This document shows positions 52,736 through 53,690 of a stretch of DNA of 64,000 nucleotides, one piece after another; position 1 is the first letter of the stretch, and each line of letters begins with the position of its first letter. This stretch comes from a phage. The DNA is taken from the NCBI GenBank assembly GCA_027337125.1, contig GCA_027337125.1_3057.1; one strand, 5' to 3'. A program made the position numbers and the translations under genes. The notes beneath the pieces were generated by a model. It saw only the letters and a program-made list of their open reading frames with translations, was not told where the DNA came from and did not search any database.

Positions 52736-53353
52736 ATGATTAAATTGGTATTTGCCTATTCTCCAACTAAATCGGTTGAAGGCTTTAATGAATTAGCATT
52801 CGGTTTAGGTGATGGTTTACCATGGGGACGAGTTAAAAAAGACCTTCAGAATTTTAAAGCTCGTACCGAAGGTACAATTATGATTATGGGTGCTAAAACG
52901 TTCCAGTCATTGCCTACATTACTTCCTGGTCGTAGCCATGTGGTGGTATGTGATATTAAACGCGGCTATCCTGAAACTAAAGACGGTGATTTGGCTCATT
53001 TTTATATTACCTGGGATGAGTATGTTACCTTGGTAGCCGGTGGACGCATCCAATTATCCAGTCCTAATACAAATTTTGAAACGTTTATCGATTCCAGCGA
53101 AAATCGCATCAGTGTAATTGGCGGGCCTGCTCTGTTATATGCTGCATTACCTTATGCGGATGAAGTAGTCGTTTCTCGCATCGTTAAAAGGCATCGTGTT
53201 AATTCAACGGTTCAATTAGATGCAAGTTTTCTTGATGATATAAGCAAACGTGAAATGGTTGAAACCCATTGGTATAAAATAGATGAAGTAACAACCCTTA
53301 CAGAATCAGTATATAAAAATGAAATAGCTACTGGCGGAAAATATGAATTTTAA
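52736..53353 (+). CDS. frd: Dihydrofolate reductase
   Basis: DHFR-like translation; position upstream of td. Confidence 0.85.
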
Positions 53354-53690
53354 TTATTATCCTATTTTATTAGAAGAAGATGCGAAACAGCCAAAGTGGC
53401 AAGGTCCTCAGTTTATTAAAGGTGTCTATCAATTAGTAGTTCCTAAAGATAAGATTTATAGTAGTTGTTTTACTGAATCCGCTTGTAGTATTTTCGGTAA
53501 TAGTTCTCCGTATTGGAATTTTGATATAAAGCTTGACAGAAATATCGATATTTGGCTGAAAGCTATGGATATTGGTAATATTACGTTTGATGAGAATAAT
53601 TATCATATTATTGGCCGCTTTTCCAAACGTGGCAAAGAATTATATTTCACGCCTGAAATTGAAAGAAAATTTGATGCAAAGCCATATTAA
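53343..53690 (+). CDS. Hypothetical protein (115 aa) between frd and td
   Basis: ATG overlapping frd 3' end; fills entire frd-td interval. Confidence 0.5.

Follow-up and report, generated by a model that had tools for sequence, protein, structure and literature searches.

In phage T4 the genes frd and td lie directly against one another: the reference record (NC_000866), with frd at 145109..145690 and the end of td at 145112, shows the two genes sharing the 4 nt ATGA, and no sequence separates them. In the 64-kb stretch of phage DNA considered here (below, the window), the same genes are separated by an open reading frame (ORF) of 115 codons. What is this reading frame, how did the difference from T4 arise, and what might the encoded protein do? 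The first-pass annotation had rightly described the two genes as adjacent in T4, and had proposed that the extra ORF might have been inserted into a highly conserved folate/thymidylate operon; these two proposals are taken up in turn below.

The ORF occupies 53343..53690 on the plus strand, running from an ATG to a stop codon that ends at 53690, and its product has a mass of 13.6 kDa and a pI of 6.6. It shares 11 nt (53343-53353) with the end of frd, which encodes dihydrofolate reductase (DHFR; 52736..53353, plus strand), and is followed by a 13-nt gap (53691-53703) that holds an AGGTG ahead of the start of td exon 1 (53704..54255, plus strand); these positions, first read off by the annotation, were confirmed from the ORF list and the raw sequence. 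A putative Shine–Dalgarno-like element, GGCGGA, lies at 53333..53338 on the plus strand, 4 nt 5′ of the ATG, and is the same in phages Bas39 and HP3. A scan for promoters and terminators was uninformative, in that motif counts equalled the shuffled expectation. At 30.7% GC, the ORF lies below both frd and td exon 1 (38% each) and below the window as a whole (35.5%). Downstream, the td group I intron contains a full-length I-TevI ORF (54384..55121, 245 aa, as in T4), followed by td exon 2 (55266..55580). Because td is annotated as uninterrupted in the ORF-bearing phages JoYop, F2, and RB32, the presence of the intron and that of the ORF are independent of each other; a role for the ORF as a helper of td-intron splicing was rejected on the strength of the same three phages.

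Three further features of this neighborhood deserve mention. Near its 3′ end (53300-53353), frd carries two extra A residues, at about 53315-53316, relative to T4 and Bas39 (TATAAAAATGAA versus TATAAATGAA). As a result the TGA that ends the gene in T4 is no longer read as a stop, and DHFR gains 12 codons (205 aa in the window, 193 aa in T4), which carries the enzyme's reading frame into the start of the ORF; as the same A pair is found in JoYop and F2, it is not a sequencing error of a single record. In Bas39 (L009, about 1849-1892), RB32, HP3, and G2540-3, a 31-bp segment, TAGCTTCATAAAATGTATTATAATTTATATA, lies between the ORF and td. This segment, which the window, JoYop, and F2 lack, contains a MotA-box-like TAGCTTCA followed by TATAAT, and could thus serve td as a middle promoter. 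Finally, a second ORF without a T4 counterpart, of 80 aa, is found at 52490-52732, between frd.1 (DUF5417; 52237-52479) and frd; it has no Pfam match, its place corresponds to that of RB32ORF231c, and nothing in T4 corresponds to 52513-52718 of the window.

To establish whether the frame is under selection, we made use of a codon alignment of seven Tequatroviruses (the window, Bas39, JoYop, G2540-3, RB32, F2, and HP3) and calculated dN/dS by the Nei–Gojobori method. For the ORF, dN/dS lies between 0.00 and 0.07 at dS values of 0.05-0.87, with outlying values of 0.15 and 0.22 that come from two near-identical pairs having 3 synonymous differences each. The corresponding ranges in the same seven phages are 0.01-0.22 for frd (dS up to 0.60) and 0.02-0.10 for td exon 1 (dS up to 1.63). 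Purifying selection on the ORF frame is thus at least as strong as that on the adjoining enzymes, which rules out a spurious or chance reading frame, and homologues can be followed down to about 17-30% identity. The 115 codons thus make up a genuine gene that phages have strongly conserved.

The protein belongs to a family that is already cataloged. It matches phrog_1928, whose function is not annotated, at an E value of 8.2e-36 (residues 4-111 on profile positions 2-125 of 126), and a family HMM built here matches it at 4.7e-34. By tblastn we found 555 phage records with the protein, 363 of them at 90% identity or above and 192 below 60%; phages 107, NBG2, and HP3 are among those in which an identical protein is annotated as hypothetical. 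An exhaustive profile search of 1.84 billion cluster representatives yielded only 44 clusters (at 50% identity), comprising 40 with lengths of 95-139 aa, two short fragments, and two long repeat proteins; the long proteins (P0031 and P0052) look like composition artefacts and were discarded. In a separate case, the 195-aa NCBI protein P0015, the last 36 residues are identical to the C-terminus of the Klebsiella-phage members and the N-terminal 159 residues are unrelated. This protein is probably the outcome of a rearrangement or an assembly artefact, and we judged it a chimera rather than an informative fusion.

Across an alignment of 50 sequences, four residues are invariant (W19, G91, K95, and G97) and five nearly so (Q16, G27, Y29, F93, and F102), and the window protein has all nine. 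Members fall into a short subtype of about 95-116 aa and a long one of about 115-139 aa, the latter with an insertion after the invariant Trp. As far as seen in the sequences recovered, the family is confined to phages of the Tevenvirinae. The family HMM detected no second copy in the 64-kb window. The remark in the first-pass annotation that the ORF has no recognizable motifs held up against Pfam, NCBIfam, and PADLOC, none of which matched the ORF protein or its 50 aligned relatives; phmmer and hmmsearch against PDB sequences likewise gave nothing significant (hmmsearch E of at least 0.17), and a full-text literature search found no paper that treats this ORF.

The position of the family is as constant as its sequence core. 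Members lie directly 3′ of frd in every locus inspected, and before td wherever td falls within the fetched stretch. The slot is held in eight named Tevenvirinae genera, often by a tandem pair of one short and one long member; it is occupied in Tequatrovirus, Karamvirus, Kagamiyamavirus, Jiaodavirus, Gelderlandvirus, and Roskildevirus, as well as in phages of Providencia, Morganella, Proteus, and Serratia, whose members are the most divergent and also adjoin a dihydrofolate reductase gene. Both a short and a long member occupy the frd–td interval in CC31 (Karamvirus), the Enterobacter phage MY742, EcS1 (Kagamiyamavirus), the Klebsiella phage kv_tblp2, and the Logan metagenome contig L011, and the interval in the Erwinia phage FBB1 (Roskildevirus) contains two members, of 99 and 151 aa. 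JD18 (Jiaodavirus) has a short member only and STP4-a (Gelderlandvirus) a long member only. Comparison of the junction across the T-even genomes gives a divided answer to the idea of an extra ORF: it is extra with respect to T4, where the family HMM finds no homologue in the 6.5-kb frd–td region, but not with respect to T2, T6, RB14, RB32, and RB51, all of which carry it.

How, then, did T4 come to differ? When the window and T4 are aligned pairwise, the T4 sequence is cleanly interrupted over the ORF, and blastn places the segment without a T4 counterpart at 53325..53700 (376 bp). A direct repeat, AAATGAAA, is found at each edge, with the left copy at 53317..53324 and the right copy, which includes the td start codon, at 53702..53709 (both plus strand); the 64 kb contain just 18 occurrences of this octamer, counting both strands, and yet it is present at both edges of the segment. 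In Bas39, RB32, and HP3 the ORF is bounded on either side by TAAATGAAA, the left copy containing the frd stop and the right copy the td start, and the RB32 GenBank record already describes the gene as 'flanked by 9 bp repeat'. T4 keeps exactly one copy (TATAAATGAAACAATACC). T4 is well known to lose sequence lying between short direct repeats, and the flanking repeat of 8-9 bp, with its single copy in T4, points to a deletion by microhomology.

The divergence of the ORF provides a further line of evidence. The frd genes of Tequatrovirus fall into two allele classes with about 86% identity between them, and the ORF is found with both. Between the classes (window versus Bas39), dS is 0.41 for the ORF and 0.49 for frd; this agreement indicates that the ORF diverged together with frd. 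Taken with the strong constraint on the frame, a dS like that of the flanking genes implies an old gene that has been inherited vertically. The frd gene of T4 is itself 97.4% identical to that of Bas39 and 96.2% identical to that of HP3, both of which carry the ORF. When 60 evenly spaced records were drawn from the 515 Tequatrovirus-like records matching the T4 junction, only five had the empty junction of T4, namely a fragment and a strain of T4 itself, vB_EcoM_112, HY03, and G28. The proposed insertion into the operon therefore finds no support, given that outgroup genera have the ORF, that its dS equals that of frd, that a single repeat copy is left in T4, and that empty junctions are as scarce as this sample indicates. 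Judged from these comparisons the event was very probably a loss in T4, the reverse of an insertion, and we hold the evolutionary conclusions on the ORF, taken together, with high confidence.

The notion that the operon is highly conserved also has to be given up at this point of the map, as the frd–td junction exists in three states within Tequatrovirus alone. In addition to the ORF-bearing and empty states, phage fFiEco06 has an unrelated 68-aa ORF (L017, 748-954) joined to its neighbors by ATGA and TAATG overlaps, and other records with the same match span (about 507 bp; pSs-1 and others) were grouped with it. The interval in Karamvirus-like phages and contigs contains a third small ORF (L002, 3173-3379; L004, 3148-3354; L011, 4670-4879), and the 68-aa ORF of fFiEco06 is 69-81% identical to the third small frd–td ORF of MY742, kv_tblp2, and L011. 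All three states sit on flanks that are 95-98% identical (T4, G28, fFiEco06, and HP3, with Bas39 for frd), from which it follows either that the junction changes faster than its flanks or that short recombination tracts exchange it.

An empty frd/td junction with the ATGA overlap is also seen in RB69 (Mosigvirus; L010, 5384-5390), where it reads GTATAAATGAAACAATACCAA and the flanks are much more diverged. The RB69 junction is the same as that of T4. Either the coding-constrained microhomology gave rise to deletions in parallel, or the empty allele is the older one and spreads by recombination.

We next consider the likely structure of the product. AlphaFold prediction from a 15-sequence alignment gave a pLDDT of 75.6, and prediction from the 50-sequence alignment a pLDDT of 92.1 with a pTM of 0.85. 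The model consists of strands at residues 6-12 and 27-34, a variable region, a strand at 62-64, a helix at 68-77, and strands at 86-96 and 99-104 separated by a turn. The resulting order, β1-β2-β3-helix-β4-β5, fits an OB-like arrangement in the model. The invariant W19 is placed in the β1-β2 loop, and the G-x-F-x-K-x-G motif, made up of the invariant G91, K95, and G97 and the nearly invariant F93, forms the β4-β5 hairpin; ligand sites of OB folds are usually formed by the β1-β2 and β4-β5 loops. Foldseek searches of the PDB with both the pLDDT 75.6 and the pLDDT 92.1 model gave no significant neighbor (best E 0.26, TM about 0.3), and the neighbors below significance are mostly OB folds: SSB, RPA14/32, Stn1-Ten1, RMI, CusF, and RuvA domain I. 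The description of the protein as OB-like draws on the secondary-structure order and this list of weak matches, since no PDB structure matches significantly. BFVD yielded only uncharacterised Straboviridae relatives, with weaker matches in the Aeromonas phages phiAS5 and Ah1.

Considering these observations jointly, we conclude that the ORF is a genuine accessory gene, passed on vertically within the nucleotide-precursor gene cluster of the Tevenvirinae, and a short-type member of its family that would be read from the frd–td message. With its start lying over the frd stop region and its own stop 13 nt before td, translational coupling appears possible from the arrangement of the frames. T4 very probably lost the gene through a deletion between the 8-9 bp TAAATGAAA repeats at the frd stop and td start contexts, which also created the ATGA overlap; on this reading RB69 lost it separately. 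The product is modeled as a 13.6-kDa β-barrel with OB-like strand order, and may act as a non-catalytic binding module made along with DHFR and thymidylate synthase (TS); most likely it would bind nucleotides, a nucleic acid, or some protein partner from the machinery of dNTP synthesis and replication. Since T4 and RB69 do without it, the ORF is dispensable under laboratory conditions. Its near-neutral charge (pI 6.6) is atypical of a nucleic-acid binder and speaks against that choice of ligand, and its constant position says little in favor of a functional link to frd and td, because T4-like genomes are broadly syntenic. We regard this explanation as a whole, evolution and function blended, as slightly favored over its negation; the functional component by itself, that of a non-catalytic binding module suggested by the model, is a tentative guess that we would sooner expect to fail than to hold.

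Among other accounts of the gene, the one that survives best, though we think it unlikely, is a part in counter-defence or host takeover: a small early protein would bind and neutralise some factor of the host, and its location within the operon would do no more than ensure early expression. The protein is indeed small and dispensable (as T4 and RB69 attest), with homologues only in these phages. Its slot varies among an ORF-bearing, a 68-aa-ORF, and an empty state, other genera have between one and three small ORFs there, and its GC content is below that of its neighbors. Such a role is hard to square with the very strong purifying selection, which leaves no sign of arms-race diversification (dN/dS of 0.00-0.07 apart from the two near-identical pairs), or with a position that is strictly conserved in genera infecting different hosts; PADLOC, which covers defence systems only, also returned no match.

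Less probable again is a role as an accessory subunit that couples DHFR to thymidylate synthase, with the short and long forms each contacting one enzyme. Family members lie immediately 3′ of frd over a deep divergence, the overlapping frames would suit stoichiometric co-translation, tandem paralogue pairs exist, and very strong constraint is what one would expect of a protein contacting conserved enzymes. Against this stand T4 and RB69, in which DHFR and TS work without the ORF, and the phages that have a short member only, a long member only, or the unrelated 68-aa ORF. In an extended and equally improbable version, the short and long frd–td proteins would be a new class of small, structurally orphan β-barrel subunits that physically organise the thymidylate cycle, either bridging DHFR and TS or tethering them to ssDNA or gp32 at the replication fork; if true, this would amount to a non-covalent analogue of the DHFR-TS fusion that was lost from the laboratory phage T4.

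Weakest of all, and in our view very improbable, is the idea that a mobile or selfish element, for instance a homing endonuclease of the freestanding kind, entered an ancestral ATGA junction with duplication of an 8-9 bp target. The flanking repeat can be read as a target-site duplication, three BASEL records bear the label 'putative homing endonuclease', the empty junction is the same in T4 and RB69, the ORF is low in GC, and the td intron with I-TevI is close by. Against it, the domain searches of 50 family members detected no nuclease or any other domain, and each genome examined has one location and always the same slot, which is shared by homologues in distant genera. The dS of the ORF matches the flanking genes in size, its divergence runs parallel to that of frd, and at 115 aa it has about half the size of the Seg and Mob endonucleases. 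The BASEL label itself (whether GIY-YIG, HNH, or LAGLIDADG is meant) was rejected for lack of a nuclease domain, for the fixed single site, and for the co-divergence with the flanks.

Returning to the reading that we prefer, a vertically inherited gene of the nucleotide-precursor cluster, much of what underlies it is already on record: the gene is annotated as hypothetical in hundreds of T-even genomes, and the flanking repeat is noted in the RB32 entry. It is an ordinary conserved hypothetical gene that most relatives of T4 carry, and T4 is the exception. T4 is thus unrepresentative at the frd–td junction, which calls for caution among annotators who use it as the reference. The protein itself combines tighter constraint than DHFR, synteny over many genera, and a confidently predicted fold without a structural neighbor. 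Because T2 and T6 carry the ORF and T4 constitutes a natural null, its function could be addressed at little cost and in a clearly delimited setting.

It is instructive to set the window against the systems that it most resembles. In comparison with OB-fold domains such as SSB, RPA14/RPA32, Stn1-Ten1, RMI, and CusF, the predicted order of elements is alike and conserved aromatic and lysine residues fall in ligand-type loops, whereas no significant structural or sequence match links them to the ORF protein (Foldseek E of at least 0.26; PDB hmmsearch E of at least 0.17). The long-type paralogues (CC31p238, EcS1 ORF254, STP4a_223, and that of the Serratia phage Muldoon) are recognized by the family HMM at E values of 1e-18 to 1e-25, and have in common with the window protein the W...HG[IV]Y...G.F.K.G....F core and the same genomic slot. 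They differ from it by an insertion of about 15-40 residues after the invariant Trp (W-P-[LI]...P-T-I-x-E-Y..N-P) and by an overall identity of only 16-28%, and the window has no long-type copy.

RB32ORF229c, the phrog_1928 member present in T2, T6, RB14, RB32, RB51, HP3, phage 107, NBG2, and others, is the same gene as the ORF: the proteins of the listed Tequatrovirus records are 94.8-100% identical to that of the window (100% in HP3 and NBG2), and they share its position and its flanking repeat. The window, JoYop, and F2 depart from the RB32-type records in the 2-nt insertion that lengthens frd into the ORF, and in the absence of the 31-bp promoter-like spacer before td. The frd/td junction of T4, lastly, has the same flanking genes as the window and an identical td start context (AAATGAAACAATACC). 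It differs in the absence of the 376-bp segment, and the best interpretation of its ATGA overlap is a scar that remained when the DNA from one repeat to the other was deleted.
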